Part shown: positions 9,001 through 39,111 of the stretch, piece by piece
Numbering within the stretch: position 1 is the stretch's first letter
Layout: each line of letters begins with the position of its first letter
Program-made: the position numbers and the translations under genes
From: an uncultured Gammaproteobacteria bacterium
GTDB taxonomy: Bacteria; Patescibacteriota; Patescibacteriia; SBBC01; CAIJZX01
Assembly: GCA_964397195.1 (NCBI GenBank)
Contig: CAYNGY010000002.1
Coordinates: 180,012 to 244,011 of the forward strand
Length of the DNA stretch: 64,000 nucleotides
Reading direction: 5' to 3'
Notes under the pieces: generated by a model
Databases searched by the model: none
What the model was told of the DNA's origin: nothing
The model's input: the letters and a program-made list of their open reading frames with translations, nothing else

Positions 9001-11920
9001 GGCCACGGGCTCTGGATTTACGGTGACACCGGGCACGGGCGACATGAACGCAGTCACGTTCAGCGGTGATAGTGGTGGTAATGGTTCATGGACCATTACT
9101 GGGAGCGATCTGACCGTCGATGGTGCGTTAACGGTCAATACAGGCGATTCGTTGACGATTGATACAAGTCGGACACTGACCGCTTCCAGTAGTACCAATG
9201 TAAACAACGATGGGACTATCACCGGGGCTGGGGTGTTGAAGTTCCCAAGTGGTGCGGGCGGTCCTGACTCGGACGCAAATTCAACGGGCACGTATAGTTC
9301 GATCGTGCGCTATGATGCGACAAATGGCGATGTGGCGAGTACGACGATTGATGGTCGGACCTATAGTGGGCGCGTCGAACTTGTATCGACGTCATCAAGT
9401 AATCGCACCATCACCCTACCGAGCACTGCATTCACCGTATCCGGTGGAAGCTCACATTTTTATGTGCAAGCAAATGGGACTGGGGACCTGACCGCTGAAG
9501 CCGGAACGAACAATCCGACCATGACCGTCGGTGGGGCTTTGAAACTGAACGGGACCGGGGGCGGGAATGAAGTGTTGGCGATGGGTGACGGAACGTGGAC
9601 GGTGACGGGCGATGTGGACCTGGCACAAGGATTCACCGCACCGCACGTCGCTCAGCTCAACCCGGTTTGGGATAATTATGGCTATTCACAAGATGAATTT
9701 TTTGATGATGGCTTTGGAGGATGTAATTACGTCAATACAATCTATTCTTGCGGTACATCGAGTAGCACGACGATGGATACGGGCGATGATTTGACCACGA
9801 ATGGAGGTCAAACTTGTCCGAATCTAGGATCGAATTTCGACACACTCAACCGGGCGTATTTGAAGTACGATTTGTCGTCGATCAGTAACACCTATACGGT
9901 GACGGCCTTACAGCAACAAGTCTACGTTACGTCGGCTGGGTCGGGACCGACCATCGGGCGGGCGACGAGCGATACTCCAAACACGGCCGCTTGTGAGGAC
10001 TTATACAATGTTAGTGTGGCGACGCCGTATAATTCCTTCACCGACTGGGGGACTGGATCGAGGGTCGTTTCTCTGCCAACCTCGGGTGCTCAAGCCGCAC
10101 TTGGTACCACTGCGTTCTCGTTGGTCACATATAGCGGTACGCAGAGCATAATTAATTCAACCGACGCCGCGACGAATAAGCCGGTCTTGCGCATTGGATA
10201 TTATACGCCGTCGACATCACCAACCTTAATCATGAACGGGACAGGGGTGACGTTGACGGCGAACGGTGCCCAGCCGGCGAACTTCTATAATTTGACGCTC
10301 TCCGGGACGGTGACGGTCAACTTGACCACGACGGTGTACGTCTTCCACAACTTCGATTTGTCGGGAACGGTTACGAATAACACCGCCGCACTGGTCATGA
10401 CCGGTGTGGCCAGCGGCGCAACGTTATCTGGCCATGGCAATACCATCGGTAACATGAGCATCACTGATAATGGCAATGTGACCATGGATAGTAGTTTGAC
10501 GTTGTCGAGTGCGTTGGTGGTCTATTCGGGCGCGACGCTGACCCTAGCGTCAGGTCAGACACTGACTCACTCGGCGGGCACATTCATCCTCAACGGCACC
10601 ATTGCTGGTCCGGGATTGCTAACTATCACCAATAGCTCCTCGGGTCCCGGCTCGACGGGCACCCTGAATGCCCCCGTACAGTTTGATGCGACCGCGGGGA
10701 ATATTGCGACCACGACATTCGATGCCCGAACGTACAACGGTGCGGTTGAATTGTACTCGAACAGCGGCTCGGCCCGATCGATTACGGCGCCGACCTCCGG
10801 GACGTATTCCTTTGCATCGAGCGTCACGACTACGAGCGCGAATACTGGCGCGCTCACCTGGGATCTCGATAACACGACCGATCCAACCGTCACTATCACC
10901 GGCGCCACGTCGATTGGATCGAATACGACGCTCGAAGCTCCAAGCTCGACTACTCTGACGTTGAATGGGAATTATACAAACAGTGGCACGTTCACCGATG
11001 ATGCCGGCACGGTCGCCATTGGCGGCGGGAGCCCCCAAACACTCGGTGGTACGCTGAGTGGTAGTTCCGACTTTAATAACCTGACCATCACGAACACCAG
11101 TGGTAGCGAATCGGCACCCGGCGTGGTCTTTAGTGCCGCTGTGGCCGCGGCTGGGACGTTGACCGCGAACGCGAACACCAAGCTTCAATTCCTCGCCGGG
11201 ACGACATCGTCCGCGGCGGCTCTCGCCTTGAACGGTACGGTCGGGAATATGATCTATCTCCGTTCATCGTCGCCGGGCTCGTCGTGGAATTTCAATAAAA
11301 CATCCGGCGGAACGCCGACTATTACCTACACGAATATTCGCGATTCGTACGCCTGTGGTTCAAGTGGTGGGGAAATTGATGCGTCCGATGCGCCGAACGG
11401 CTCAAACGTTGATTATGCGAATAATACGTGTTGGCTCATCAATACCATCTCGCTCAGTATTTCTGATACGAGTGTCGGCTTCGGGAGTTGTCAGGCCGGT
11501 TCCGCACGCTACGCCACTGGCGATACACTTGGCGCCTCGAGTGATTCAACGGATGCCCATACCGTCAGCGTAACCACGAATGCGCGGAATGGATATACCC
11601 TGAGTGTACAAGGGGCGACGCTGACCTCGGGCGGCAATACGATTTCGGCGATTGGTGGATCGCCGGCCGCGTCCAACCCGGGCAGCGAACAGTTTGGTCT
11701 TCGGGCCATAAAAAATAGCGGCACCGGCACCATACAGAGTCCGTATAATTCGGCTAACTGGGGGTATAATGGGGTGTCCGCGGCTTCAACCATTGCCAGT
11801 CATACCGCCGGTGTTGCCTCGACCGTCTATGGTATTCGGTACATTTGTAATATCAACGCGTTGACTGAGGCGGGAAATTACTCGTCAAATTTGACCTACG
11901 TGCTGACCGGCCAGTTCTAA
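1..11920 (+). CDS. Giant secreted surface protein, partial at the 5' end (the reading frame is open to nt 2). The N-terminal part carries at least six autotransporter-associated PATR beta-strand repeats, followed by long beta-helix-like G/T/S/N repeats. The C-terminal ~170 aa is a WxL-like domain shared with the 13673..14728 gene.
   Basis: The ORF runs to the window edge with no stop upstream in frame. It contains repeated motifs of the form LTKxGxGTLxLSGxNTYTGxTTIxAGTLxL, for example TKWGAGTMTITGTNLNTGLVQVNAGTLKY, LTKTTGGTVTLSGTNTFSGITTISGGTLSV, YTKIGPGTLILSGSNLHTGLNTVLAGTLKL and LTKDGTGILYLPNANTYTGLTTINAGIIDI. The C-terminal block ...ISDTSVGFG..RYATGDTLG...LTSGGNTISA...EQF...TEAGNYSSNLTYVLTGQF aligns at roughly 45% identity with the C-terminus of the small protein downstream. 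Confidence 0.8.
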   Translation, partial: SAARIINSGGGTLTFSGAPSGAFNFVVGGSGNTTFSTAFPNAAATITKWGAGTMTITGTNLNTGLVQVNAGTLKYAATTTLAAPNLIVNGGTFDFNGNTDTIGTVTMRSGTITDSNGTPGALTGATAYELYSGTISGVLTGGGVPLNKRTGGTVTVTKSQSYTNLTTVLAGTLQYGASNIIADAAAITVNGGTLDVQSYADTLATVTLTNGYIIGGGTLTGSAYNVMSGSISAILAGAVNLTKTTGGTVTLSGTNTFSGITTISGGTLSVGSIGNGLSAGNLGAASNAAANIVFNTGTGTLAYTGGSASTDRNITTTTGITMQIDVTNPAAVLTWSGATTATTAPYTKIGPGTLILSGSNLHTGLNTVLAGTLKLGAANVLVTGGLTVTNGTFDLNNFSDSLGAITISKDGQIIDSVGTTAILTTSAAGVYQSGTISARITGSSASAFTKSTSDRVILSGNNTHTSTAVTLSAGALNLQHSNALGISTTALLVTETSGAVVEVQNTVTIPSNKTFNISGTGVNLGGAIENVADSNTLQGTITLGASNTRINSNLGTLTISGNIAGNALNVVYGGAGNIAQNGTIGTTSGTLTKDGTGILYLPNANTYTGLTTINAGIIDIQNATSLGTTANGTVVNSGATLRSSVFVTVGVEALTLNGTGVSNVGALQSYVEAVTWQGAVTLASNASIGVNDSPASITGTIIGSGSNGLTKVGSGSLTVSTTTLGGDLTISAGTLVASGSSVISVGGSWSNSGTFTANSSTVSLTSTTSATITGNTTFNNFSVTGIGAAKTISFVHGSTTTVSGTWTVNGGAVGTRIVLTRDNTSNWNVNPATAALDYVDISYVTNQGSYFCATHSVTANGGNANIGVTSGTACGVTVSGFIYTNDASSALNCTVGGTRTVAVKVNGSGSFTGACSSSSGDFTVSAVPITAAGDVLTVFISGATEKAATVTIAADNTSDITNIPLRVSRLVVTHESAGPITNHATTGIGRYDKDDDATNLFFTANSNNLVVDAGYKLMVNSGKTYTPGGNVTTGPSTNAATVDGDVNIPATSTLNLGTNTLSVGGHLVNAGTLNSSAGSAIVFTSTASGTMTITGGGATIYDLTLNNASGHWTNSGNITINGNFNLTAGEFIQANSTTITVNGTGFTLASGSTWTKATSGGNLILENGSNLSFTDNTSPKQNLGAVQIGASPGTTTLTTDMSATSVTIPNGDTFNTKGYDVTTTDFFDCQGTCILNLTDTGPSNEGDGTVLDVGGDFSMSDTATFTAATSILFMNSTAAANSNRTWITGGKTYNHVELKNAGTSLSTIEPSGDVDVNGDFTITDGYVDFGANPPVTVTTAGNVTIVVGATVVAPDSWTFDGSGTKTWTDGTSGGGQNLGAVAINGSSKTVNLGSDAKATTVTIAGSQTLGLASSGYTLTITGSGTAGSRPFQNNGTLNEGTDSTVKYTGTATTDLFDETYYHLTLAPASGSPTFNMGPDGVSGFTVTGTLTVGDATHAVTLDTNFDDQQYLNDVVIANAATWNTNAVNGQSMSGSLVMNGTLTINDVLGFTAATLGHTISGSTLNSTGALTAVVFDGVGGGWTIQNDTAFSSFNIIGGSVIQGPNVNITVDGAWAMASGTTFTKASGSGTVTFIGTSATTFTDSTASKQNIGDVFITKTHGTPSNNKVTLASSMLADTVTVSASNTLDLASGGYTLTVANVGSSADPLTVTGTLTASGSSTVALTATNSGGSVNIPTTTYYALGLGTTADSTAETYVLSGNTTVSTVLTVGNASSGAADAFDASSRTLTLPGGGTPFVLTSQGTFTASSSTVNYTGGPSTVTVVGATYNNLGVGTTVDITTGVIYQLAANTTVSGVLTVGNTGSTNIDTLDGSSRTLTLSGSGTPFVLTSKGAFALGTSTVLYSGTSATTIAATQYYSLTTGVNDGNTVTYTLDTTAVSNTCATGSTGTYTQACGGTLAITTGDTLTITGVNLSLSAGGTLVLDGTMDGTGTFTYFSTTEFPSSGTVSVATIYMNLYYNDVTLSPRTYGGDVLAISFTGSNRTLYFGAVSEAGSLTIGGSKRLLLYAQSTGNITLDNTRNNWNVTIGTDLQTPGSGGGTETILAGSGTWTASGNVTFTNGIFTAGSSTLTMNGTSKTLTSAGNALNNFNQTGGTVTMSGATTVNNNFTITSGTLTAPSAANLSVGGDFNNAGTFTHNSGTVIMTGTSKNITGGSATTFNNLQISGTTGIDAAGSDATVAGTLTVDSSKILTINTGRVVTHTGTTDVANSGTIQGAGTLRFTSSSTGGPGTGGAINSIVRFDASGASIPTAVVDARTYGGDLEYYSNVAAVRTITPASTTHTVSGNLKIITGASQTSSFTVAANTNNPTFTIAGNLSYTKGASATPAVTSGSGTWTVSGDATFTNGTYTPSTNNTFVMDGSGKTVASTVSFYKFTSNGTITSTGNVSVANILTLQSGKSLTVSGTLNCSNASTIVMTGATLDGAGTLIYQKGGTGFPTDGTLNIATTMFAPTTGAVTIPSRTYGGSVVCEDGLSATTCTLTGTPIITGNLSLYDVSLGASFDGTPTSVTIGGNFSGINNGGGNGLTMAGTWTVSGDFDMSSLSSFSAGTSSLVMNGATKTLTTNGNSLYDFSVSGGSVSVAGTNATVSHDLTVSSGVLTAPTGTLSVGRNFAHSGGTFTHNNGTVALTTSTAAAVSGSTTFKNLSVTGIGAAKTITFTASSTQTVTGTWTVTGASGQIVTLQSSSSPTKWNINPTAASVSYAAVTDSDNQGVSFCATFSTGSSNTGWSIGAGASCGITVSGTVYQSSNEGSGYGCNSDNLTMYVAVNGDVTPDSGLCNSAGGTFTITGVTDPGAANIPIAVYIDTGESVKGTTVTLSSASGADISGLSLMLDRLVVSQQSGTATTNSHLNTADNGNAGIRYAVSGGALTVDAGMELHVLSGKTFTPGGAVTTTATGTAAGAAGDVHIAGTLTMGTNALNVGGDYTNAGTFNKTNTQTTTFAATGSGFTVTPGTGDMNAVTFSGDSGGNGSWTITGSDLTVDGALTVNTGDSLTIDTSRTLTASSSTNVNNDGTITGAGVLKFPSGAGGPDSDANSTGTYSSIVRYDATNGDVASTTIDGRTYSGRVELVSTSSSNRTITLPSTAFTVSGGSSHFYVQANGTGDLTAEAGTNNPTMTVGGALKLNGTGGGNEVLAMGDGTWTVTGDVDLAQGFTAPHVAQLNPVWDNYGYSQDEFFDDGFGGCNYVNTIYSCGTSSSTTMDTGDDLTTNGGQTCPNLGSNFDTLNRAYLKYDLSSISNTYTVTALQQQVYVTSAGSGPTIGRATSDTPNTAACEDLYNVSVATPYNSFTDWGTGSRVVSLPTSGAQAALGTTAFSLVTYSGTQSIINSTDAATNKPVLRIGYYTPSTSPTLIMNGTGVTLTANGAQPANFYNLTLSGTVTVNLTTTVYVFHNFDLSGTVTNNTAALVMTGVASGATLSGHGNTIGNMSITDNGNVTMDSSLTLSSALVVYSGATLTLASGQTLTHSAGTFILNGTIAGPGLLTITNSSSGPGSTGTLNAPVQFDATAGNIATTTFDARTYNGAVELYSNSGSARSITAPTSGTYSFASSVTTTSANTGALTWDLDNTTDPTVTITGATSIGSNTTLEAPSSTTLTLNGNYTNSGTFTDDAGTVAIGGGSPQTLGGTLSGSSDFNNLTITNTSGSESAPGVVFSAAVAAAGTLTANANTKLQFLAGTTSSAAALALNGTVGNMIYLRSSSPGSSWNFNKTSGGTPTITYTNIRDSYACGSSGGEIDASDAPNGSNVDYANNTCWLINTISLSISDTSVGFGSCQAGSARYATGDTLGASSDSTDAHTVSVTTNARNGYTLSVQGATLTSGGNTISAIGGSPAASNPGSEQFGLRAIKNSGTGTIQSPYNSANWGYNGVSAASTIASHTAGVASTVYGIRYICNINALTEAGNYSSNLTYVLTGQF

Positions 11921-11956: not shown

Positions 11957-13552
11957 ATGCGTATGAAGCATTTGTGGTCGCGTCGACGAGTCATCTCTTG
12001 GGCATCCCGTGGCCTTTTTTGTGGGCTGTTGATGGTGATGTTTTTTTCTGGGGCACAGGTAGTGCAGGCCCAAATGACCTTGATCGACGAGGCTGACGAC
12101 GGCGTCTTGGTCAGTGGCGGCATCACCTTCGATCTTCGTCAGTACCGATTCTGTCGCGACCCGATCACTTGTGAACTTCCGGATCGGCTTTCGAACATCG
12201 ATCTCTTCCTGCGCCGACACAAAGTTGGTCTGTATACACCTGATGCCCGTCCATTAGAGCCGGCGGCGGAAGTGGTGCGATTAAATATCGTCCCGCAGGC
12301 ACTCGGATATCTGAATTTGTACCAGACAACTCATGTGTGGCGATACCGTCAGGAAGCTGTCGATCGTTTGCAGTATCTTCTACACATTGGACCAGATGTC
12401 TACGGTCGGGGCGTGCGCTCCGGGATGACTGGGTACGCATTTCTCATGGGGTATCGGTATACCGGAAACGCGGCTTACAAAAAAGCGGCCCAGCGTATCG
12501 CTGAAGAGTGTCTGACACAGCCGCTCGGGGATCGATGGATGAATGGGGGATTGATGTGTGGGTTTCACTTAGCGGGCATGTATCGACTGACCGGGGACGT
12601 TCGGTATCAAACGGAGGCTCGTAAGATTGTCGAGCGAACGTCAGTTTGGCAGTACCCAAATGGCGCTTGGCCACATCAGCCCCATCCGGATGGCGGAAAT
12701 ACGAGCTATACGGCGTGGATGGTGACCGAGCTATTATTGATGCATGAGGATGATCCCGGGTACGAGCTTGGTGATTTATTGCTGGCAAAATCCATCAACT
12801 TTTTGGCGCAACGTGTAAACACCGACGGGAGTTTGAATTATAGTGATGCCGCCGGTGACTACTACCTTGATCCGGGCGGCTTGGAATCACGTTTCTGGAC
12901 CGGAGAACTAGCCAATATTGCCCTCGATTTGTCGGCTGGTGGTCGTCGCGATGCCGCGAACAAGGTTTTGCGAACACTCTTTTCCTATGAAATGACAGGG
13001 AAAAATCGTGGCGGATACCCGGATAAATACAATCTATCGAACACGACGACTATTTGGGAAACAGGGAGCCCCTCAGTTGTTCGGACGTCGATGATATTTT
13101 GGTATCTGTCGATGATTGATCAATTCGATCGCCCGTGCCGGTCTGGCGGCACGCCGACGTGTACTATTTCGTCGCCATCGTGTAGTCCGTTGTATTCCGG
13201 TATGGGTCAATGTCCGCAAGGGATAACAGGGAACCGTACCTGCCTCGCTGGTACTTACACGTCGTGTTTTGAACTAGCTACGACTCAGCTTTCTGAGCCG
13301 CTCATTTGCCAGGTCGATTCGTATTGTGAGAATGATCGTCAGTGGGGAGCGTGTTATTATACGTGTTATCGATCTGGGAAACAGCTCTGTCTGAATGGGG
13401 TTTGTGCAGGGATCTGCTACGCGGTACAGGAAGGGGAGGTGCAATGCGATTCTGAGTGTTACCAAGATCAGTCCTGTCCGGCTGGGGCGGACGCTCTACC
13501 GCCTGGACTGTCCGTGGACGACCAGAAGTTGCGGCGCCAGCCTTCCCGATAG
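11957..13552 (+). CDS. Secreted protein of unknown function. It has an N-terminal signal or transmembrane segment, an alpha-helical repeat-rich core, and a Cys-rich C-terminal module of about 120 aa with roughly 25 Cys.
   Basis: The ATG at 11957 is preceded by a GGGGG Shine-Dalgarno sequence. A hydrophobic N-terminus (LFCGLLMVMFFSGAQVVQA) is present. The C-terminus has dense cysteines (CRSGGTPTCTISSPSCSPLYSGMGQCPQG...CYAVQEGEVQCDSECYQDQSCP). No motif allows a confident family assignment. Confidence 0.55.
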   Translation: MRMKHLWSRRRVISWASRGLFCGLLMVMFFSGAQVVQAQMTLIDEADDGVLVSGGITFDLRQYRFCRDPITCELPDRLSNIDLFLRRHKVGLYTPDARPLEPAAEVVRLNIVPQALGYLNLYQTTHVWRYRQEAVDRLQYLLHIGPDVYGRGVRSGMTGYAFLMGYRYTGNAAYKKAAQRIAEECLTQPLGDRWMNGGLMCGFHLAGMYRLTGDVRYQTEARKIVERTSVWQYPNGAWPHQPHPDGGNTSYTAWMVTELLLMHEDDPGYELGDLLLAKSINFLAQRVNTDGSLNYSDAAGDYYLDPGGLESRFWTGELANIALDLSAGGRRDAANKVLRTLFSYEMTGKNRGGYPDKYNLSNTTTIWETGSPSVVRTSMIFWYLSMIDQFDRPCRSGGTPTCTISSPSCSPLYSGMGQCPQGITGNRTCLAGTYTSCFELATTQLSEPLICQVDSYCENDRQWGACYYTCYRSGKQLCLNGVCAGICYAVQEGEVQCDSECYQDQSCPAGADALPPGLSVDDQKLRRQPSR

Positions 13553-13592: not shown

Positions 13593-13621
13593 TTGACCGA
13601 GTTGTAAAAATGTGCTACAAT
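13593..13621 (+). promoter_or_regulatory. Sigma70-like promoter: -35 TTGACC, a 17-nt spacer, and an extended -10 TGcTACAAT.
   Basis: TTGACC sits at 13593-13598 and TACAAT at 13616-13621, with TG two nt upstream of the -10. It lies about 50 nt upstream of the 13673 start. Confidence 0.5.
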
Positions 13622-13672
13622 AAGGTGAGTAAATATCAAATAGTAGCCTCTTGGCTAAGGTTGGCCAAATAT

Positions 13673-14728
13673 ATGATTAAAAGACATTCCGTTCGTTCCC
13701 TTTCCCGTCGTAGCGCCGCGCTATTAGCCATTTTTGGCTTGATGGTAGGGATGAATATCGGGTCAATTCAGGAGGCCACAGCGGCCCAGATTACTCCGGC
13801 GAAGGTGACCATGTCCAACCTTAACGCGAGTGGTACTGGTACCTTGGCTTTTGCCTTTACCACCATCACCTCGTTATCGGCGACCAATACCATTAAATTA
13901 CAGTTTGATCCAACGGGAGATCTCTTTACACTGGCATCCGTAGCCGATACGGATTTTTCAGCCGTCTCTGGAATGACGATTGTTAATGCTTGTGGTGGCG
14001 GGTCTGATGAAGTAACGGTGACGTCGGATACGTCGGCGCCTGATGAGAGCTATACGTTGACGGTTTGTTCGGGTGATACCGTTGGTGCCGGAGCCAAGGC
14101 ATTTACGATCGCCACCGCGAAAGTGACGAATCCAGCAACACCAGCCGCGTATAAGATCGCCATTACTACCACATCAGACTCGGCGACGATCGCCATTCCG
14201 GTCATTACCAATGATGTGGTCAATGTGTCGGCGACTGTCGACCCATCCATTACGTTCAGCATTTCTGATGTGACCGTTGGGTTCGGAACGTTGGCTTCGG
14301 GTGCTGTCCGCTACGCCACCGGTGATACGCTCGGTGGGACGACCGAAACGACCGCTGCGCACACGATGTCGGCCGGGACAAACGCCGTGTCGGGGTTAGC
14401 GGTCACTTACTCTGGCGGCCTGCTCACGAGCGGTGGTAATACGATCAGTGCGGCAACGAGCGTCACCCCGCCGGGGAACACCGCGGCCGAGCAGTTTGCT
14501 ATTGCAGTTGACGATAATGGAACGGCCTTTACGATTGCCGCGGGCTACGATCAGGCGACACCGATCTATTCGTACGTCGGTACGGGCACGACGACGGCAT
14601 TATTTTCGTCGGCGGGGCCGCTGTCCTCGACCAACGTTGATGTTCATTATCTGGCGAACATTGCCGCCAATACCGAAGCCGGTAACTACTCGACCAACAT
14701 CACCTACATCGCTACGGCTACTTACTAG
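13673..14728 (+). CDS. Secreted protein whose C-terminal ~170 aa is homologous to the C-terminus of the giant protein. This is a WxL-like surface-binding domain with a C-terminal motif YSTNITYIA.
   Basis: The start was chosen at MIKRHS... (RBS AAGG, 13 nt upstream) rather than at the ORF-track start, which overlaps the promoter. A signal peptide is present (LLAIFGLMVGMNIGSIQEATA). The C-terminal domain aligns with giant-protein residues around 3775-3947. Confidence 0.7.
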   Translation: MIKRHSVRSLSRRSAALLAIFGLMVGMNIGSIQEATAAQITPAKVTMSNLNASGTGTLAFAFTTITSLSATNTIKLQFDPTGDLFTLASVADTDFSAVSGMTIVNACGGGSDEVTVTSDTSAPDESYTLTVCSGDTVGAGAKAFTIATAKVTNPATPAAYKIAITTTSDSATIAIPVITNDVVNVSATVDPSITFSISDVTVGFGTLASGAVRYATGDTLGGTTETTAAHTMSAGTNAVSGLAVTYSGGLLTSGGNTISAATSVTPPGNTAAEQFAIAVDDNGTAFTIAAGYDQATPIYSYVGTGTTTALFSSAGPLSSTNVDVHYLANIAANTEAGNYSTNITYIATATY

Positions 14729-14758: not shown

Positions 14759-15784
14759 ATGTCAAAACAAATAGCACGTTCCCTCCTGATTGCCGCGGTT
14801 GTCCTCGCTGGACTGTCGGTTCACCATTCAGCGCAGGCGCTATCCTTAGTGCCACCGAGTTTGGAGTATAGCGTTAAGCCGGGAGATGTTGTTGCCGATC
14901 AGGTAAAGCTCTATAACGAACAGGATCAGTCCATGACGGTCACACCGTCGTCGGCGAATTTTGGTGCAAAAGACGAAACCGGCCAGCCGGACTTTACCTT
15001 TGATGCGCCATCGGCCGATTTGGCGTCGTGGATTACGCTTGATACATCGCCTCTGACGATTAAACCGAGCGATCGTGCCACAATTGCCTTCACCATCACG
15101 GTGCCAAAGAATGCCGAACCGGGCGGGCACTATGCCGGAATTTTCTTTGCCACCGGTGCGCCAAAAGAGGGACAGGTCGCGGTTCAATCAAAAATTGGGA
15201 CGTTGATTATTCTCAGTGTGGCAGGGAATGAGAAAGAATTAGCGTCGATTGTCGAAACCGGTGTCAATAATGCACAAAAAACACTTAGTCGCTTGCCGGT
15301 ATCATTTTTCGCGAGAATTCGGAATACCGGAAATGTCCATGTTCGCCCCGAGGGATCGGTGACGATTAAGAATATGTTCGGGCGAGTTTCGGCCGTGATT
15401 CCGGTGAACGATGTGCGCGGCGCGGTGTTACCGAAGAGTATTCGTCGTTTTGAGATGAGCTGGTCGAAAGGTGCGGATGTCTGTGATCAAGAACCCGATG
15501 GGACCTCAAAGCCGTGCGGTTTTTTTCAGCAAGTTGGCGCGGAGTGGCGGAACTTCGGATTTGGCACATACACTGCCTCGTTTGATCTGACCTATGGGAA
15601 AACATCGAAGGCGCTGAGTGACAGCGTTTCCTTCATGATCATTCCGTGGCGACTCTTGTTAGTTGAGTTTCTGGCCTTGGTGTTGCTAGTCGTGGTGTTC
15701 CTGTTTGGCATTCGTCGTTATAATCGCGCGATCATCCGGAGCGCGCAATCAAGGAAGAACATCCCGCCGGTTAAGCGCATGTAG
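14759..15784 (+). CDS. Surface protein with a signal peptide, a DUF916/DUF3324-like beta-sandwich region and a C-terminal transmembrane anchor. It resembles the CscA-type partner found in WxL loci.
   Basis: A signal peptide is present (LLIAAVVLAGLSVHHSAQA). The core YSVKPGDVVADQVKLYNEQDQSMTVTP resembles the DUF916 motif F.L.VKPGQ.Q.L.V.V.N. The C-terminal hydrophobic helix WRLLLVEFLALVLLVVVFLFGI is followed by a basic tail. Confidence 0.45.
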   Translation: MSKQIARSLLIAAVVLAGLSVHHSAQALSLVPPSLEYSVKPGDVVADQVKLYNEQDQSMTVTPSSANFGAKDETGQPDFTFDAPSADLASWITLDTSPLTIKPSDRATIAFTITVPKNAEPGGHYAGIFFATGAPKEGQVAVQSKIGTLIILSVAGNEKELASIVETGVNNAQKTLSRLPVSFFARIRNTGNVHVRPEGSVTIKNMFGRVSAVIPVNDVRGAVLPKSIRRFEMSWSKGADVCDQEPDGTSKPCGFFQQVGAEWRNFGFGTYTASFDLTYGKTSKALSDSVSFMIIPWRLLLVEFLALVLLVVVFLFGIRRYNRAIIRSAQSRKNIPPVKRM

Positions 15785-15787
15785 CCC

Positions 15788-16660
15788 ATGTTCGGCTCTT
15801 GGGCGCAGTTTGTTCATCGGGCGCTCCTCGGGAGCGTCGCTTTGGTTTTAGGGATGTGGCCGTATTCGGTGGCGGCGCAAACCGTGACCGGCTCGGCGTC
15901 GGTTGGAGTGAGTGCAGTCGTAATCGACCAGAACGTCGTGCCAACAAACCCGAGCGTCGAGTTTCATGGTGTTGTTTCGCCCAACGCGACGGTCACCATT
16001 TCTCGGGACGGGACGGTCGTGTCGTCACAGCTTGCTTCCAGCACAGCTGATTTTGTCGCCGTGTTGCTCGACCAGCCGGCTGGACCGCAAAACTATCTCA
16101 TCTCTGCGGTTGATACGAGCGGCGCGGCCTTAGCGCCGATCTCGTTTTCGCTAACGCTGGTGGTCAATACGAATACCATCATCACCGGCGTTTTCTTGGG
16201 TCCGTCAATTCGGATTGATAAATCAGCCGTCAAACTCGGCCAATATGTCACCGTAGCTGGTATGACCGCTCCGAGCAGTGATGTGAGCGTTACCATCCAT
16301 TCGACCCAGGCTAAGAGTTTTACGGTCACGGCCGACGGATCCGGGCGGTGGTCGAAGTTGGTGAACACGGATGATGTGGGTGTTGGAACGCATACCGCCC
16401 AAGCACGGGCCGTGCTCGGTGGGAGTCAAATTTCAGCGGTGAGCGCAGTAGTGTCGTTCGCGGTTAATCCGCTCGAACAGTGTGATGGAAAAAAGACGGC
16501 CGATGTGAATTGTGATGGACATGTCGATTTAACTGACTTTAGTATCTTGCTGTATTTCTGGCAACAGACAAATCCACGGAATAGTCGGGTCGATATTAAC
16601 GCCGATGGCCGGGTTGATGTGATTGATTTTAGTATCATGCTCTACCAATGGACAAATTAA
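15788..16660 (+). CDS. Secreted protein with Ig-like beta domains and a C-terminal type-I dockerin module of two Ca-binding repeats.
   Basis: The C-terminus reads DVNCDGHVDLTDFSILLYFWQQ...VDINADGRVDVIDFSIMLYQW. That is a duplicated DxNxDGxVDxxDfsilL dockerin signature. An N-terminal signal peptide is present. Confidence 0.75.
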   Translation: MFGSWAQFVHRALLGSVALVLGMWPYSVAAQTVTGSASVGVSAVVIDQNVVPTNPSVEFHGVVSPNATVTISRDGTVVSSQLASSTADFVAVLLDQPAGPQNYLISAVDTSGAALAPISFSLTLVVNTNTIITGVFLGPSIRIDKSAVKLGQYVTVAGMTAPSSDVSVTIHSTQAKSFTVTADGSGRWSKLVNTDDVGVGTHTAQARAVLGGSQISAVSAVVSFAVNPLEQCDGKKTADVNCDGHVDLTDFSILLYFWQQTNPRNSRVDINADGRVDVIDFSIMLYQWTN

Positions 16661-17766
16661 GAAACATGCTCGTAGTCGCTCCGGTGTTGGCGTTGAGTTT
16701 TTTAGCCGCGCCGGCGCGGGCCGTGGAGCCATCCATACAATTCGTCCCGCAAGTTGGCTTTACGCGACCGGGCGAGACGCTGACGGTTGATGTCCGACTG
16801 ACGAACCTAGATCAGCCAATTAACGCCGTTGACCTGTCAATCGGTTATCCAACCGATGTATTGCGACTTGATCGGATCGATCGTGAACGGTCAGCGTTCA
16901 CCCTATGGCCGGAGGAACCGCAAATTCAGTCAGCGTCGGGCGTGGCGCATGTTGTAGGCGGTCTGCCGAACGGTCTCTATGCGCATGACGCCCGGGTGGT
17001 GACGCTCCGATTTACAACGCGTCATGCTGGCCAAGGCGCCTTTCGCATCGTGGCCGGTAAGGTCTACCTCAATGATGGACTTGGTACGGCAGTGCCTATT
17101 GTCGCCGAACAGACAGCGGTTACGGTACAGAGTGAATTTCTCGATCATATTCAGCTGACGTCGTCGCATCATCCGAATGATGGCGCATGGAGTGCGGAAC
17201 GGACCGTCGATATTTCATGGGTCGCCGAGGCCGGACGACAATACAGTTACATTTTTGATGCGGACGGAACCATCGCTCCCGATACCCACCTGGATGAAAT
17301 CAAACCGTTGCTCTTTACGGATCTTGCCGACGGTCGATATTCATTCGCTATTATTTCGCGTGGCGCTGACGGTCTATGGTCTCCAGTTACCCAGCGTTGG
17401 TTTCTGATTGACGGCACTGCCCCGGAGGTACCAATCCTGGTCCACCCCGATCCGACGACCGTGAACGGGGCGAATCTTCTGGCCTGGTCAGCTGTTGATC
17501 GAATGTCGGGCATTGTCCGATCCGAACTGTACGTCGGTGGAAAAAAACAGGGCGATGTTGAGAGTCCCGTTCGATTACAATCTCGTTGGGCCGGTCAGAC
17601 GCTGACCATCCGGGCGTACGACGCGGCGGGGAATAGCCAAGCAGCGTCTTGGGTCATGCCGGGTATGCGCCAACCGAGCTGGGTAACGCTTGGGGCTGGC
17701 GGTGGTGGCCTATTACTTCTCCTGTTCGTGCTGGTCATCATATTCCGACAACGACGTCGAACATGA
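16648..17766 (+). CDS. Membrane-anchored protein with a signal peptide, a cohesin-like domain, an FN3/Ig-like domain and a C-terminal transmembrane helix. This is paralog 1 of 3.
   Basis: The N-terminal domain VEPSIQFVPQVGFTRPGETLTVDVRLTNLDQPINAVDLSIGYPTDVLRL...VTLRFTTRHAGQGAFRI fits the cohesin strand pattern. A C-terminal GGGGLLLLLFVLVIIF transmembrane segment is followed by RQRRRT. The start overlaps the upstream stop. Confidence 0.6.
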   Translation: MDKLRNMLVVAPVLALSFLAAPARAVEPSIQFVPQVGFTRPGETLTVDVRLTNLDQPINAVDLSIGYPTDVLRLDRIDRERSAFTLWPEEPQIQSASGVAHVVGGLPNGLYAHDARVVTLRFTTRHAGQGAFRIVAGKVYLNDGLGTAVPIVAEQTAVTVQSEFLDHIQLTSSHHPNDGAWSAERTVDISWVAEAGRQYSYIFDADGTIAPDTHLDEIKPLLFTDLADGRYSFAIISRGADGLWSPVTQRWFLIDGTAPEVPILVHPDPTTVNGANLLAWSAVDRMSGIVRSELYVGGKKQGDVESPVRLQSRWAGQTLTIRAYDAAGNSQAASWVMPGMRQPSWVTLGAGGGGLLLLLFVLVIIFRQRRRT

Positions 17767-17782
17767 TATACTCTGTTCAAAT

Positions 17783-19153
17783 ATGCACCGTTTTTCTCGA
17801 GTAGTGCGTGGATTAACATCGGGGCTTGCTGCGGCCTTTTTGACAGTCGTTTTTTTGTCGCGTCCGACGGCCGCCGCGGCAGCTGGGGCGTCGTTAAAAT
17901 TGTCGCCGAGTAGCGGGACCTATGAGGTCGGGTCGTTGGTGGATATTTCGATGATGGTTGATACTGGCGGCGAGTCAATAAATGCAGTCGCGGCCACGTT
18001 GCGTTTTCCGGCCGATAAACTTCAGGTTGTAAATCCGGCGGCGAGCACGTCGTTCATTTCTATTTGGGTCAATGCGCCTACCTATTCAAATACCGACGGA
18101 ACCGTTTCGTTCCAAGGCGGTTTGCCGAATCCGGGTATCAAAACGAGCGCCGGCGTCATTAGTACGATTTCCTTCCGCGTCAAGGTGCCGGGCACGGCGA
18201 CCCTTAAGTTCGATCCGAACGCAAGCATTTTACGCAACGACGGACAGGGGACAAATATTCTGACCTCTACAAGCTCGGCTGACCTGACACTCAAGGTGCC
18301 GCCGCCGGCGGGACCAGTTGTCAGTAGTCCGACGCACAGCGATCAAAATGCTTGGTACAATAATGGGCAAGTTCAGTTTACTTGGGAGGCGATTGATGGC
18401 GCGGTAGGGTACAGCTATGTGTTTGATCAGTCGCCAAAAACAATTCCGAATGAGACGATCAACTCGGCTCTTCACGCGGTGAGCGTCAAAGCGGCCAATG
18501 ATGGGATTTGGTTTTTTCACATCCGCTCGAAAACTGATTCATGGGGCGGAGTGACAACATTTCCGGTTCAGATCGACACGACGGCTCCGGCCACCTTCGG
18601 TCCGGTCATCGACCAAGATCCCTTAACCACCGAAGACTCCGGGATAGTACGATTTGCCACGACTGATGCGGCCTCCGGGATTGATCACTACGAAGTGAAA
18701 ACGGTAGCGCAGTCAGGCGGATCAACGGCGCAGAATACGCTGTTCGTTGAAGCGAGTAGTCCATTTTCACTACCGAAACTGTCGGCCGGAACGTATACGG
18801 TGATTGTCCGGGCCATTGACCGGGCCGGAAATGCCTACGATGGGACTCGCTCTGTGCAGGTTGTGAGCGGTGGTGTACCATTCTATTCGCGGGTTCCATT
18901 CCTTCGGGATCCGGCGGTTGCTAACGCCGTCCTGATCGTCCTCGGTGTTATTACCACGACGCTCCTCTCGAGTCTCTTGCTCCGTCGAGTGCGGTTACGT
19001 GCAACCTTCCATCACGACTTGGAGATGCTCGAACACGATGCGCAGAAGAAAGCGGCAGTGCTTCAGCGGGAATTAGATGAGCTTCGTCGCGCGCAGCAGA
19101 TGTTCCCGGCGCCGCCCCAAAACCAACCACATGACCAACACCCAACGCCTTAG
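17783..19153 (+). CDS. Membrane-anchored cohesin-like-domain protein, paralog 2 of 3, with an FN3-like domain, a transmembrane helix and a coiled-coil cytoplasmic tail.
   Basis: The start was chosen at MHRFSRVV, just after the previous stop at 17766. The ORF-track start at 17690 overlaps the previous gene. The cohesin-like block is LKLSPSSGTYEVGSLVDISMMVDTGGESINAVAATLRFPADKLQVV...ISFRVKVPGTATLKF. The transmembrane segment is AVLIVLGVITTTLLSSLLL. The tail is ELDELRRAQQ. Confidence 0.6.
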   Translation: MHRFSRVVRGLTSGLAAAFLTVVFLSRPTAAAAAGASLKLSPSSGTYEVGSLVDISMMVDTGGESINAVAATLRFPADKLQVVNPAASTSFISIWVNAPTYSNTDGTVSFQGGLPNPGIKTSAGVISTISFRVKVPGTATLKFDPNASILRNDGQGTNILTSTSSADLTLKVPPPAGPVVSSPTHSDQNAWYNNGQVQFTWEAIDGAVGYSYVFDQSPKTIPNETINSALHAVSVKAANDGIWFFHIRSKTDSWGGVTTFPVQIDTTAPATFGPVIDQDPLTTEDSGIVRFATTDAASGIDHYEVKTVAQSGGSTAQNTLFVEASSPFSLPKLSAGTYTVIVRAIDRAGNAYDGTRSVQVVSGGVPFYSRVPFLRDPAVANAVLIVLGVITTTLLSSLLLRRVRLRATFHHDLEMLEHDAQKKAAVLQRELDELRRAQQMFPAPPQNQPHDQHPTP

Positions 19154-20813
19154 TTTTATCGGGTTCCTCGCGGTCGGCTTGTTCAGTCTGCCACTGTTTG
19201 CGCAGGCCGCGTCGCTCGGGCTGTCGCCATCGTCGACCTCGGTCACGGTCGGGAAATCGTTTAGTGTGACCGCGCGAGTGAATGCTGGCGGTGAAGCCAT
19301 TAACGCCGCTGAGGGGACGATCATGTATCCGACCCAGCTCCTGAAATTAACCAGCGTCTCGAAGTCCGGGTCTATTTTTACCTTCTGGGCGCTTGAACCA
19401 CGAGCGAGTTCGTCGGGGCAGGTCAGCTTCATTGGCGGTCTGCCGCATCCGGGGTATACGGGCAGTGCCGGGACGATTGTCCGTATGACCTTCACTGCTT
19501 CGGCGACCGGCACGGCCACAATTTCGTATGGTGGCGGAAAAGTGCTCGCTGATGATGGGAATGGGACAAATATTTTATCGAGTCAGGGATCAGCCACGGT
19601 GCATATCACGGAGCCAGGATCAGCGACACCGTCGACACCCGCCGAGCCGCCGTCGACACCACGTCCAATTCCGGGTCTTTCCTCGACGACGCACCCGAAA
19701 CAGACGGAGTGGCTATCAAAGACAGCCGGGACGTTGCAAATTTCTAAGCCAAGTGGTTCGACCGGGTTCAGTTTTGTCATTGACCAGAAAGCATCGACCG
19801 CGCCTGATGAGAGTGTTGATACAACGGCTGGTAGTATTGATGTGCCATTAGCCAGCGATGGGGTGTGGTACGTCCATGTTCGGGCCAAGTACGCTACTGG
19901 GTGGAGCAATACCACATCGTACATCTTCCGACGAGATACGGCGGCCCCGCAGCCGTTTACCGTGACCGTCGAACAAGACCGTGGGGTGACCGATCCGACG
20001 CCAACCATTGTCTTTTCGGCGCACGATGTTTCAAGTGGTATCGCGGGGTATACGGTTTCGGTGGATGGCGGCGCCCCAGTTGCGGCGGTGAGTCCATATC
20101 AGCTCTCGTCACTTCTCCCCGGAGCACATCGGGTGCTGGTGGTTGCAGTCGACCAGGCTGGGTTAGCGCAAACCGCGTCGGCGGATGTATTACTGACCGG
20201 CTACCCGGTGCCGAGCATTGACTCGCTGACAACCCCAATCATGTTGATGGAGAGTTTCTCCATGAATGGGCTGGCGTTAGCCGGTGATATTGTGATTATT
20301 GCCGTGGACGGACAAACCGTTGGTCAAACGGTGGCGAAGCGCGCCGACACGACTGATGAAGATCAGGTACTCGTCCGTGTGCCCTGGACCTACACATCGA
20401 CCATGTTGTTGCGACCGGGCACCCACACGGTGACCGTCACGGCCGTTGGGTCGGATGGCCAGCGGAGCGTGGCCACTGATCCGCGATCGCTCCACGTGGT
20501 TGGAGGAACAATGATGTTTCGGGGTCGACCCGTGGCGACGATCGCGCTGGCTCCGGCCATTGGGATTGGTATTATCCTGGTTCTCTTTTTGAACGCGGCC
20601 GTCTTCGCAAAACTCTGGTGGAGTGTGCGAAAAGTGGTTCAACGCGATGATCGGGTAGAGGATGAGCTCGAGGGTCTGCGCCAGCGGATTCGTCACGATC
20701 GACTGACCACCACGGAACTGGATGAAAAAATCCAATTTATTGAAGCCGATCTTGCCGGACGCGTGCGGAAAGCACGACGACGTACGGGGAGTCGTCGCGG
20801 ACAGAGCGTATGA
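19131..20813 (+). CDS. Membrane-anchored cohesin-like-domain protein, paralog 3 of 3, with a Pro/Thr linker, two Ig/FN3-like domains, a transmembrane helix and a coiled-coil tail.
   Basis: The start was chosen at MTNTQRLSF (ATG 19131), which overlaps the upstream stop at 19151-19153. The cohesin-like block is LGLSPSSTSVTVGKSFSVTARVNAGGEAINAAEGTIMYPTQLLKL...MTFTASATGTATISYG. The transmembrane segment is IALAPAIGIGIILVLFLNAAVF. The tail is charged (VEDELEGLRQRIRHDRL). Confidence 0.6.
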   Translation: MTNTQRLSFIGFLAVGLFSLPLFAQAASLGLSPSSTSVTVGKSFSVTARVNAGGEAINAAEGTIMYPTQLLKLTSVSKSGSIFTFWALEPRASSSGQVSFIGGLPHPGYTGSAGTIVRMTFTASATGTATISYGGGKVLADDGNGTNILSSQGSATVHITEPGSATPSTPAEPPSTPRPIPGLSSTTHPKQTEWLSKTAGTLQISKPSGSTGFSFVIDQKASTAPDESVDTTAGSIDVPLASDGVWYVHVRAKYATGWSNTTSYIFRRDTAAPQPFTVTVEQDRGVTDPTPTIVFSAHDVSSGIAGYTVSVDGGAPVAAVSPYQLSSLLPGAHRVLVVAVDQAGLAQTASADVLLTGYPVPSIDSLTTPIMLMESFSMNGLALAGDIVIIAVDGQTVGQTVAKRADTTDEDQVLVRVPWTYTSTMLLRPGTHTVTVTAVGSDGQRSVATDPRSLHVVGGTMMFRGRPVATIALAPAIGIGIILVLFLNAAVFAKLWWSVRKVVQRDDRVEDELEGLRQRIRHDRLTTTELDEKIQFIEADLAGRVRKARRRTGSRRGQSV

Positions 20814-21520
20814 ATTCGGTTTGGATCGTAACGCCGACGTATAACGAGCGGGAGAATATTCGGACACATATATCCGGGCTACGGGCGACAGTGCCGCAGG
20901 CGACGCTATTGGTAGTGGATGATTCTTCGCCTGATGGAACGGGGGCGGTGGTTGACGAGCTGGCGACTGGTGACGCGCAAGTGCGCGTTCTTCATCGCCA
21001 ACAGAAGGCCGGGCTCGGTCTGGCCTATATGGAAGGATTACGGATGGCGCTAGCGGCGGGGGCGACGCAGATCGTCCATTTAGATGCAGACGGCTCACAC
21101 CCGATTGATCTGATCCCGTCACTGCTCGCAGCGCTTGAGACCGCCGATTTGGCGATCGGGTCGCGTTACGTTCAGGGCGGGTCGATGCATATAGATATTT
21201 TCCGTCGGCAGGTGAGCAACCTAGGAAACATATATATCCGGTCGCTCTTAGGCCGAGCGATTCATGATTGGAGCACTGGGTTTAAGGCCTGGCGTCGGGC
21301 GTCGCTTGAAGGGGTCCTAGCCGTGCCCCCGCGGGCCCATGGGTATGCCTGGTTGATGGAGACGAGTTGGTTAGCGGTGCGAGCCGGGGCGCGGGTGACC
21401 GAAATACCGTTGGTTTTTCAGTCCCGCCAACGCGGCGAGTCGAAATTTTCCCTGACTATTGCCAAGGAAGACCTTCAAGTGGCCTGGCGTCTCGCGCGGG
21501 GTCGGACCCTTGCGGAATGA
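20810..21520 (+). CDS. GT2-family glycosyltransferase, of the dolichyl/polyprenyl-phosphate mannose (or glucose) synthase type.
   Basis: The sequence shows VTPTYNERENI, a DDSSPDGT motif, and DADGSH (the DxD region). The ATGA start/stop overlap with the upstream gene suggests translational coupling. Confidence 0.75.
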   Translation: MNSVWIVTPTYNERENIRTHISGLRATVPQATLLVVDDSSPDGTGAVVDELATGDAQVRVLHRQQKAGLGLAYMEGLRMALAAGATQIVHLDADGSHPIDLIPSLLAALETADLAIGSRYVQGGSMHIDIFRRQVSNLGNIYIRSLLGRAIHDWSTGFKAWRRASLEGVLAVPPRAHGYAWLMETSWLAVRAGARVTEIPLVFQSRQRGESKFSLTIAKEDLQVAWRLARGRTLAE

Positions 21521-37594: not shown

Positions 37595-39109
37595 ATGGCG
37601 TCCATTATCCAGGGGCATGCCCGTCGATGGTTGACGGTTTTTTTGTTTGTAGCGATGATTGGGTTTACCGGCTGGTATGGCTGGCAATGTGGATTGAATG
37701 CCAGTGTGGCCGATGTTGCTTCTCAGGATTTACCGCATGCCTGGCAAACGGTTTGGAATGTCGCCCATGGCCATGGTTTTCGGTACACCGATCTGTTACG
37801 GCAGCTCGATCTGCCGCGGTTGTCGGCGCACGCTGATTACATCTTATTAGGATTGGCGCCCTTGGCGCGGGTCTGGTCAGACTATATGATCCTCGTTTGG
37901 GTTCAGGCTGCCGTCGTTGCTTCAGGCGCTTTGGCGGTGTGGCGGATTAGCCGACGCTGGGTTAATGCGGATGGCTGGAGTTTCGGTCTCAGCCTGGCCT
38001 ATCTCCTGAATGGCCCGTTGCAGTTTGCGGTCACATTCCAGTTTCACGCCATCACCTTGGCGGTCGGCTTTATCCTCTGGATGGCTGAGGCGGTGGTCTA
38101 TCGGCGACGGTGGTGGGTGATAGGATTGTGGTTGTTGTTGGCACTCTGCACAAAAGAGCAGGTCGGGTTGATTGTCGGGCCACTCATTTGGTGGCTAGCG
38201 GCAACTGAAGGAAAAAAGTCCCTGGGGTATCTTTTCGGGGCGGTGGCGGTACTATGGAGTACCGTCCATTTTGTCTGGATAATTCCGGCGATGCGTACAA
38301 CGGGTGGCCCGCATTTATTCTGGGAGTTTTATTATGGTTCACTTGGTGATACACCGCGAGCGATACTCCCGCGCCTGATGCAACCGATGGAGCTGTGGTC
38401 ACGACTGGTGTCTTGGTCGCAAGTCGGACGCGGAGTCGCTCTCCTCGTGCCGTTCGCCGGTCTATCTCTCGGCTCACCATTGATCCTTCTGGCCGCCGCC
38501 GCCTGGGTACCACATGCGCTTGGTGATTCGGAAGCCGTCCGTTCTCTCTATTATCAGAATCAGGCTTTGGCCATTCCGATTTTGACGCTGGCCGCCATCG
38601 ATACCGTTCGTCGTCTTTCTCGTTGGGCGCGCTGGCCGCGTTTTCAGCTGCCGGCTCTTCTTGGCGGACTGGTACTGCTGACGATTGGTAGCGGCATATT
38701 TAGCCCGAATCCATGGAGCGCGGTCTATCGGCCCGTTTTTCGCGCCGGCGATGATCGGGTAGAGATTTTTCAGACGATGGATCGCCTGATTCCGGCGTCA
38801 GCCGTGGTGGCGGTGTCATGGGGCTTGCCCCCGACATTCCGGGATCACCCGACGGTGTACGTACTCCCGGCTGGCGTGGCCCAGGCGGAGTATGTTGTGG
38901 TGGGCGTCAGTGCGCTGGAGACGCTCCGGACCTACGCTCCGGCCTATGCGTCCGACCTTCGCGACTATTTTGACCATTCAGTGGCGTTTATGCCGGTCAT
39001 TCGCTATGCTGATGTAGTCTTGTACCGGCGCGTGCCCGGTGTGACCCCGGAGCCGCTCCCAGCCGGTTTTCATGACCCGACCCTCAATCGATATTGGTCT
39101 CATCCGTAA
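37595..39109 (+). CDS. Large polytopic membrane protein, paralog A of a tandem pair (DUF2079-like, possibly a glycosyltransferase-type membrane protein).
   Basis: More than ten hydrophobic segments are present. It shares blocks with the next gene (HAWQTVWNVAHGHGFRYT vs MSQTVWRAGHGYGFSFT; NGPLQFAVTFQFHAITLAV vs YAPLQFAVIFEFHAVTLAI; CTKEQVGL vs MKEQVGV). Confidence 0.5.
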   Translation: MASIIQGHARRWLTVFLFVAMIGFTGWYGWQCGLNASVADVASQDLPHAWQTVWNVAHGHGFRYTDLLRQLDLPRLSAHADYILLGLAPLARVWSDYMILVWVQAAVVASGALAVWRISRRWVNADGWSFGLSLAYLLNGPLQFAVTFQFHAITLAVGFILWMAEAVVYRRRWWVIGLWLLLALCTKEQVGLIVGPLIWWLAATEGKKSLGYLFGAVAVLWSTVHFVWIIPAMRTTGGPHLFWEFYYGSLGDTPRAILPRLMQPMELWSRLVSWSQVGRGVALLVPFAGLSLGSPLILLAAAAWVPHALGDSEAVRSLYYQNQALAIPILTLAAIDTVRRLSRWARWPRFQLPALLGGLVLLTIGSGIFSPNPWSAVYRPVFRAGDDRVEIFQTMDRLIPASAVVAVSWGLPPTFRDHPTVYVLPAGVAQAEYVVVGVSALETLRTYAPAYASDLRDYFDHSVAFMPVIRYADVVLYRRVPGVTPEPLPAGFHDPTLNRYWSHP

Positions 39110-39111
39110 CT

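Follow-up and report, generated by a model that had tools for sequence, protein, structure and literature searches.

What do three adjacent membrane-anchored cohesin proteins hold at the surface of a cell that places a single dockerin gene beside them? This question is raised by the stretch of DNA analysed here (64,000 nucleotides of contig CAYNGY010000002.1, hereafter the window), in which three tandem genes on the forward strand, called A (16648–17766), B (17783–19153) and C (19131–20813), lie immediately downstream of a gene for a dockerin-bearing protein (15788–16660, also on the forward strand). A first-pass annotation of the locus had read this arrangement as a sign of a multivalent scaffold or of selective pairing. 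In this study the picture of a scaffold for displayed proteins gives way to a model of a pilus anchor, because the genes are members of a conserved pilus operon and their one dockerin is carried by a non-enzymatic protein derived from a pilin. With moderate confidence we conclude that A, B and C use a cohesin-dockerin plug and socket to fasten the base of a Pam-type pilus to the cell membrane, and the best explanation of the locus takes the host to be an ultra-small bacterium, a Kerfeldbacteria-like Patescibacterium. The cohesin and dockerin domains themselves are not new, as many homologs have already been annotated as such automatically; what is new is the link to a pilus and the plug-and-socket model of its anchor.

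The three genes are tandem paralogs, as had been proposed from the sequence. Their open reading frames (ORFs) are exact at the coordinates above, reciprocal phmmer comparisons among the paralogs give E-values of 1e-20 to 1e-50, and in a three-way alignment of the whole ectodomains the other two are 26% and 30% identical to A, with ~60 columns invariant across all three, including the INA, GGLP.PG and DG.W motifs. The shared architecture is likewise upheld. Each protein begins with a hydrophobic, signal-peptide-like segment, continues with an N-terminal beta domain and FN3/Ig-like domains, and has exactly one C-terminal transmembrane (TM) segment, which makes all three single-pass membrane anchors; a charged tail follows in two of the three. 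Paralog A (372 aa; operon position 1 and the fastest evolving) has its cohesin domain at ~16723–17142 and its TM segment at 17677–17754 (aa 344–369), and ends in a basic tail of 6 aa. Paralog B (456 aa; operon position 2 and the most conserved) consists of the signal peptide, a cohesin domain (~17882–18298), an FN3-like domain (~18320–18577), an Ig-like domain (~18590–18865), the TM segment (18899–18991, aa 373–403) and a helical cytoplasmic tail of ~55 aa. Paralog C (560 aa; operon position 3) has its cohesin domain at ~19206–19625, an extra beta domain in addition to the FN3/Ig-like domains, its TM segment at 20523–20627 (aa 465–499) and a tail of ~63 aa. The tails of B and C are highly charged, and in an AlphaFold2 (AF2) model the TM segment and tail of B form a single continuous helix (377–438). 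The lengths of B and C are counted from the chosen ATG; mechanical ORF calls start upstream of it, at TTG 17690 for B and at 19077 for C. Overlapping gene boundaries, which had also been claimed, are found between the dockerin gene and A (13 nt), between B and C (23 nt) and between C and a downstream glycosyltransferase gene (4 nt, ATGA), but not between A and B, which are separated by a 16-nt gap. A GG_III-CTERM sorting signal in A (E 8e-4) was considered and rejected, as the orthologs have no Gly-rich motif and end only in a TM segment and basic tail.

The N-terminal domains of A, B and C are cohesin-fold modules rather than generic Ig or S-layer homology (SLH) domains. Within the family, 59 of the 69 aligned members match the Pfam Cohesin profile (PF00963) at E ≤ 0.01, the best of them at 1e-10, and a hidden Markov model (HMM) of the family cohesin recovers A at E 1e-38 and C at E 1.5e-47. 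A database search with B, which scored only the 8000 candidates sharing most words with it, returned at least 476 homologs at E ≤ 0.001; the source names are of Patescibacteria type in 120 of the 120 matches listed, many homologs already carry a precomputed PF00963 and some are named 'cohesin domain-containing protein'. The fold agrees with the profiles. In the AF2 model of B (predicted local distance difference test, pLDDT, 89.9), a signal helix is followed by a beta domain (36–171), an FN3-like domain (~180–265), an Ig-like domain (~270–361) and the long helix described above. The first match of this model in a Foldseek search of the PDB is 2w1n, the Coh-FN3 module of C. perfringens GH84C (E 8.8e-11), accompanied by dozens of solved cellulosomal cohesins (>20 of type I/III) with TMt scores of 0.69–0.77 and root-mean-square deviations of 2.5–3.4 Å over ~148 columns. 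The modelled head superposes on these structures as a nine-stranded flattened beta-jelly-roll. The B sequence and the family profile, when searched against the PDB, matched no cohesin and gave only weak matches of the second domain to antibody heavy-chain variable (VH) and FN3 domains; the solved cohesins came to light only in the fold comparison. The antibody match itself (E 7e-5 for the family profile, B aa ~193–270) aligns YSYvFDq...DGvWYFHiRAKt..WGGtT with Y..KF...DTAVYYCAR..WGQGTT, and probably reflects the common tyrosine-corner/G-strand pattern and not homology.

The partner gene at 15788–16660 encodes a protein of 290 aa with a signal peptide, a donor-like strand (VGVSAVV, ~15902–15922), two Ig-like domains and a type I dockerin (~16499–16657). 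The dockerin matches Dockerin_1 (PF00404) in two stretches at E 1.6e-9, with 38.3 bits against a cutoff of 22.9, and its segment is duplicated (D-x-N-x-D-G-x-V-D...DFSI(L/M)LY.W), giving the two Ca2+-loop/helix repeats of a type I dockerin. In the AF2 model (pLDDT 89.3), residues 27–50 are unpacked and are followed by two confident beta-sandwiches and the two dockerin helices (248–256 and 278–289), and the fold matches are those of generic tandem Ig/FN3 domains. The model contains no acceptor C-terminal domain (CTD), TM prediction finds no TM segment, and the protein is without an enzyme or carbohydrate-binding module (CBM) domain. The first-pass annotation had placed a single dockerin protein beside the anchors, and with the family HMMs the 64 kb indeed hold exactly one dockerin and three cohesin domains.

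Several features of this dockerin protein point to a pilin as its ancestor. Many related loci carry long-form orthologs of 437–468 aa, compared with 290 aa in the window, and the N-terminal 230 aa of the long forms align to the N-terminal domain (NTD) and linker of the pilins described below, at a hhalign probability of 97.5% (E 5.4e-12) for one group and of 99.3% (E 5.4e-20) for a second group (L045/L055). Both alignments are in register through the donor strand of the linker (NDqVxisAxV compared with ddxVxVtATVD). The short form in the window is orthologous to the long forms from residue 33 on (E 2e-69); it keeps only the donor strand, with the cleavage region of the signal peptide directly before it and a spacer behind. 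Within this strand, A43 and V45 do not vary among 52 homologs. The strict motif [VIL]x[VIL][ST][AV]xV occurs at 2.0 per 1000 aa in the pilins and 1.5 per 1000 aa in the dockerin proteins, compared with 5 occurrences in ~68,000 aa of cohesin proteins (0.07 per 1000 aa) and none in the 30,843 aa of giant-protein homologs scanned. As judged from these alignments, the dockerin protein is a pilin derivative. One further candidate ortholog, SEML1_0315 of Southlakia, is a dockerin protein found to be essential by transposon sequencing (PMC10633639); it was rejected, being a stand-alone 927-aa gene with unrelated neighbours.

The pilus in question belongs to a type described recently. A 2026 preprint reports the Pam pilus of Ca. 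Mycosynbacter amalyticus, a single Saccharimonadia species (bioRxiv 10.64898/2026.03.03.709456). In its pilins a linker strand lies between NTD and CTD, and cryo-electron microscopy shows this linker to be donated to the neighbouring subunit, into the open barrel of whose CTD it inserts; the tip subunit is a strand acceptor only, PamC and PamD are chaperones with C-terminal TM helices, and PamR, with an N-terminal strand, two FnIII domains and a TM helix, is a donor-only base subunit that is proposed to terminate and anchor the pilus (bioRxiv 10.64898/2026.03.03.709456). In the window, the forward-strand gene at 13610–14728 encodes a Pam-type pilin with an NTD, a linker carrying the donor strand VNVSATV (~14219–14239) and a C-terminal acceptor domain. 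It passes the NCBIfam model CPR_Pam_pilin_C (NF058581, 'Pam pilus system pilin subunit') with 57 bits against a cutoff of 55, the pilins of related loci scoring 66–81 bits. The inter-domain linker is conserved, with V.V(S/T)ATVDPS between NTD and CTD in 16 of 23 pilins, and a linker HMM recovers further, divergent pilins. The same acceptor domain forms the last ~133 aa (~11519–11917) of a giant secreted protein encoded at 77–11920 on the forward strand (E 2.3e-22, 79.7 bits against the cutoff of 55). This protein, which is cut at the 5′ end of the window and measures 5928 aa on the source contig, carries autotransporter-type PATR repeats (E 3e-18) and is proposed to be the tip adhesin; it lies upstream in most related loci. 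It may correspond to the 'tail fibre-like protein' seen beside pam operons in the preprint (bioRxiv 10.64898/2026.03.03.709456). Between pilin and dockerin gene, a forward-strand gene at 14759–15784 encodes a candidate membrane-anchored chaperone, a putative analogue of PamC/D with a signal peptide, WxLIP/DUF916-like beta-sandwich domains and a C-terminal TM segment (aa 289–322), and its position is conserved (46 ORFs across loci). No gene for a PamR-type anchor, with N-terminal strand, two FnIII domains and TM helix, lies between the giant protein and the glycosyltransferase gene. The sole non-pilin in the operon with a donor strand is the dockerin protein, which has no TM segment, and the operon is therefore a variant of the Pam system and not a copy of it.

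The gene order is conserved well beyond the window. A scan of a genome collection gave 58 loci of ~20 kb each, whose gene content was determined by ORF calling and phmmer; they come from Kerfeldbacteria, Colwell-, Lipton- and Parcubacteria, Minisyncoccia and unclassified Patescibacteria. Almost everywhere the order is giant protein, one or more pilins, TM chaperone, dockerin protein and two to four cohesin-TM genes, often followed by a glycosyltransferase family 2 (GT2) gene, LepB and HisS. The dockerin gene is directly upstream of the first cohesin gene in 43 of the 48 evaluable loci. In the remaining five a dockerin-family ORF is still present in the locus: one has an overlapping ORF call (L025), two have gaps of ~0.5 kb and ~0.9 kb (L027 and L041), one has the dockerin on the adjacent opposite strand (L049), and in one (L059) it lies ~4.5 kb downstream of a first, weak cohesin match and just upstream of the main cohesin pair. 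There is never more than one dockerin ORF per locus, compared with one to four cohesin ORFs, and 146 of the 147 cohesin ORFs carry one cohesin per polypeptide. A neighbour-joining tree of 146 cohesin domains resolves three clades, one for each operon position: the fast-evolving A at position 1, the slowly evolving B at position 2 and C at position 3. This indicates that the duplications are ancient and the copies not redundant. Mean pairwise identity across 19 loci is 0.37 for A, 0.66 for B, 0.51 for C and 0.62 for the dockerin; matching of rates was tried as a means of choosing the dockerin's partner and discarded, for although the dockerin value is nearest that of B, it is uninformative. Six of the loci (L002, L003, L007, L009, L021 and L030) are in third-party annotation records labelled 'uncultured Gammaproteobacteria bacterium' or 'uncultured Candidatus Saccharibacteria bacterium', and have the operon together with LepB/HisS neighbours of the type found in Kerfeldbacteria metagenome-assembled genomes; these organism labels are probably wrong.

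How the parts could work together follows the logic of donor-strand pili. We lean towards a view of A, B and C as type I membrane proteins that carry the cohesin head outward on an FN3/Ig stalk and form the membrane-proximal part of a Pam-type pilus. At the tip, the giant adhesin, which ends in a pilin acceptor domain, would accept a strand only. In the shaft, the pilins would both donate and accept, each inserting its inter-domain linker strand into the preceding subunit with the aid of the membrane-anchored chaperone. The dockerin protein, having no acceptor domain, can join only as the last subunit; it would donate only, take the cell-proximal position and end growth. As it is soluble, with no TM segment, its dockerin needs a receptor, and A, B and C carry, as their heads, the only cohesins in the vicinity. 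The C-terminal dockerin would then bind the cohesin head of one or more of the three, and the finished pilus would be tethered to the cytoplasmic membrane. Dockerin protein and cohesin-TM proteins would in this way take the place of PamR, whose role would be split into a plug and its sockets. We infer both the cohesin-dockerin binding and the terminator role, and the polarity of the pilus is taken by analogy from the Pam and chaperone-usher models. As to why three ancient paralogs would be kept, a hetero-oligomeric base that involves the conserved cytoplasmic tails of B and C is one possibility.

The layout of the dockerin protein is close to that described for PamR. The one has an N-terminal strand, two Ig-like domains and a dockerin, the other an N-terminal beta-strand, two FnIII domains and a TM helix, and both are proposed to be donor-only last subunits that end polymerisation and tie the pilus to the membrane. 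The likeness is to the described layout; in sequence no relation to PamR was found, the dockerin protein having no NCBIfam match. Where PamR has its TM helix the dockerin protein has a dockerin, and the task of anchoring would fall to the separate cohesin-TM proteins. In P pili of the chaperone-usher type, PapH is a non-extendable last subunit that fixes the length and attachment of the pilus, and the basal pilins of sortase-assembled pili do likewise. Attachment there is to the usher and outer membrane or by covalent linkage to the wall, whereas here it would be a non-covalent cohesin-dockerin contact on a membrane stalk.

Among cohesin systems, the nearest parallel is provided by anchoring scaffoldins such as SdbA, OlpB and Orf2p of C. 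thermocellum and ScaE of R. flavefaciens, in which a large extracellular assembly is held at the cell by a surface-anchored cohesin that takes up the dockerin of a structural partner. The proteins studied here share with them the nine-strand jelly-roll fold and the proposed use of a surface cohesin for a non-enzymatic dockerin partner. They differ in that the anchor is a single TM helix and not an SLH or sortase attachment, in that each polypeptide has a single cohesin, in that the partner is pilin-derived, and in that the hosts are non-cellulolytic Patescibacteria. The Coh-FN3 module of C. perfringens GH84C, which is the best structural match, has the same cohesin-then-FN3 arrangement and is likewise put to non-cellulosomal use. 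That module belongs to a secreted glycoside hydrolase, where it serves to assemble enzyme complexes, whereas here the cohesin heads a membrane stalk in a pilus operon, at ~16% identity. A further likeness is to the WxL/WxLIP (DUF916-DUF3324-TM) clusters of Firmicutes. The chaperone-like protein is a sequence relative of WxLIP, with two beta-sandwiches and a TM segment, and the WxL clusters pair a small and a large protein with a common C-terminal domain, much as pilin and giant protein do here. For WxLIP, insertion of a strand into a gap in the beta-sandwich of WxL has been predicted (PMC10599100). Unlike the WxL clusters, the loci studied here have pilins in which no WxL domain is detectable (the pilin family matches neither the Pfam WxL domain nor any PDB entry), and cohesins and dockerins have not been reported in the WxL clusters. 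The comparison suggests that WxL clusters and Pam pili may be related donor-strand systems, of which the Pam preprint makes no mention.

A number of observations weigh against the pilus anchor. In the window itself, PF00963 matches A at E 3.2e-4, with 21.3 bits against a gathering (GA) cutoff of 24.1, and the search of the window proteins against Pfam gave no PF00963 match for B or C at E ≤ 0.1. The strand match of the short dockerin protein to pilins is not significant when taken alone (E 0.2–10 with the linker-only HMM; probability 2% in full-length hhalign against pilins), and its pilin link is therefore carried by the long forms and by orthology. The gene at 14759–15784 is a candidate PamC/D-type chaperone on weak sequence matches only, to Pfam WxLIP_PGBD (E 3.4e-5, below cutoff) and, for the family profile against the PDB, to EfmWxLIP1 (9i25/9i1y, E 8e-5), and it has no NCBIfam match. 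The terminator and anchor roles in the Pam system, from which we reason, are an AlphaFold-based proposal of the preprint and not experimental. A mirror-tree comparison gave about equal correlations of the dockerin with A, B and C (0.37–0.40; partial correlations ~0.1) and no specific signal of co-evolution. Lastly, a passive anchor fails to explain why three paralogs have been kept since ancient times or why the cytoplasmic tails of B and C are conserved.

In one alternative reading, A, B and C are a platform for assembly or structural proteins that span the wall, and the cohesin face is not used to take up a dockerin. Such proteins could bind chaperone-pilin complexes in the manner of an usher, could bind peptidoglycan or host glycans, or could form a hetero-oligomeric collar for pilus growth, and the dockerin would find its partner elsewhere or serve as a Ca2+-binding stabiliser. 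The age and non-redundancy of the three paralogs, together with the conserved cytoplasmic helices of B and C, suggest a machine more than a simple tether, cohesin-like jelly-rolls resemble carbohydrate-binding modules, and no signal of co-evolution with the dockerin was found. We nonetheless regard this alternative as unlikely. The dockerin gene is strictly coupled, one to one, with the cohesin genes, for which direct pairing is the simplest account and the only established function of this pair of domains, and the Pam study found no dedicated trans-envelope machinery (bioRxiv 10.64898/2026.03.03.709456). The same coupling is left unexplained if the paralogs are independent, redundant or variable surface adhesins, with the cohesin head as a ligand binder unrelated to pilus or dockerin. 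The rapid evolution of A is what would be expected of a host-facing protein, and stalks rich in Ig/FN3 domains are adhesin-like; B, however, is highly conserved, and the orthologous clades are stable by operon position, unlike recent variable duplications. This possibility appears very remote to us, and both it and the platform are the weaker for leaving the linkage of dockerin and cohesin genes without a reason.

A general surface-display scaffold resembling a small cellulosome would have A, B and C present dockerin proteins encoded elsewhere in the genome, with the Ig-dockerin neighbour as one client among others and the pilus genes as mere neighbours. It is the classical mode of cohesin-dockerin systems, and three distinct cohesins would suit different dockerin specificities. 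The dockerin survey covered the 64-kb window and the ~20-kb loci, and a search with a dockerin-only profile found 264 metagenome proteins with this dockerin type; these were only fragments of ≤ 104 aa, which are silent on other architectures and thus give no sign of them. Within the window the features of a cellulosome are missing, in that its one dockerin is non-enzymatic and there is neither a CBM match nor a dockerin-bearing enzyme. The limit of one dockerin per locus, the pilin derivation of the protein that carries it and the conserved order of pilin, chaperone, giant adhesin and cohesin genes across deep lineages, with the adjacency counts given above, also speak against a display scaffold. 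We consider it distinctly improbable and retain the pilus anchor.

If the pilus anchor is correct, the base of a pilus is held by a cohesin-dockerin pair outside biomass degradation, the Pam system reaches other major lineages within the Candidate Phyla Radiation (CPR), and its giant tip adhesin has been identified. A wider proposal, which we hold only tentatively, is that a large part of the Patescibacteria (Kerfeldbacteria and lineages of the Parcubacteria/Paceibacteria type) recruited the cohesin-dockerin pair as a non-covalent mechanical coupling of pilus and membrane. A pilin would have acquired a dockerin in addition to losing its acceptor domain, the socket would be a hetero-oligomer of A, B and C, and the cytoplasmic helices might sense or regulate the load on the pilus. 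Among known non-covalent protein pairs, that of cohesin and dockerin ranks with the most mechanically stable. Such a coupling would be the first case of a cohesin-dockerin pair in the biogenesis or anchoring of a pilus, and it would account for how cells without PamR, sortase or an outer membrane hold Pam-type pili. Our literature search found no earlier account of a cohesin or dockerin in a CPR pilus operon, and the Pam preprint is silent on cohesin, dockerin, WxL and Kerfeldbacteria (bioRxiv 10.64898/2026.03.03.709456). A large part of bacterial diversity belongs to the Patescibacteria, which live attached to host cells. The genomic signature (giant protein with acceptor CTD, pilin, TM chaperone, pilin-dockerin protein and two to four cohesin-TM genes) can be used to annotate hundreds of 'hypothetical' CPR genes. 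Even if the model is wrong, a widespread and well-defined family of non-cellulosomal cohesin-dockerin genes remains.

Some minor observations concern the operon and its surroundings. In a single case, L048 (943–3366, forward strand), the cohesin genes of positions 1 and 2 form one continuous ORF of 807 aa, in the order ectodomain 1, TM segment, 11-aa basic loop, signal-peptide-like TM segment, ectodomain 2 and TM segment, a topology that would leave both cohesins outside. It could be a natural fusion, which would hint that the paralogs act together, or could result from a missed stop or a sequencing error. The GT2 gene downstream of C in the window (20810–21520, forward strand) encodes a polyprenyl-phosphate glycosyltransferase-like protein (Glycos_transf_2, E 1.5e-24); it follows the cohesin genes in only nine related loci and is possibly accessory. 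The preprint reports an unidentified modification on PamA Ser356 (bioRxiv 10.64898/2026.03.03.709456), and given this modification a role of GT2 in glycosylation of pilin or stalk is conceivable. Between the giant adhesin and the pilin, the forward-strand gene at 11957–13552 encodes a secreted protein of 531 aa with a Cys-rich C-terminal region and weak matches of alpha/alpha-barrel type (Pec_lyase, GH127, LanC-like), all below cutoff; it recurs in one other locus only (L014) and is thus not core to the operon. Elsewhere in the window, the forward-strand gene at 26269–32514 encodes a protein of 2081 aa in which Big_5 Ig-like domains come after an N-terminal T4SS_pilin domain (PF18895, E 1e-6), an unusual combination of a conjugative-type pilin head with a very long extracellular protein. 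Downstream of ftsA/ftsZ there is a tandem pair of paralogs for DUF2079 membrane proteins (37595–40647, forward strand), and a tmRNA gene on the reverse strand (63640–64000) is cut by the 3′ end of the window.

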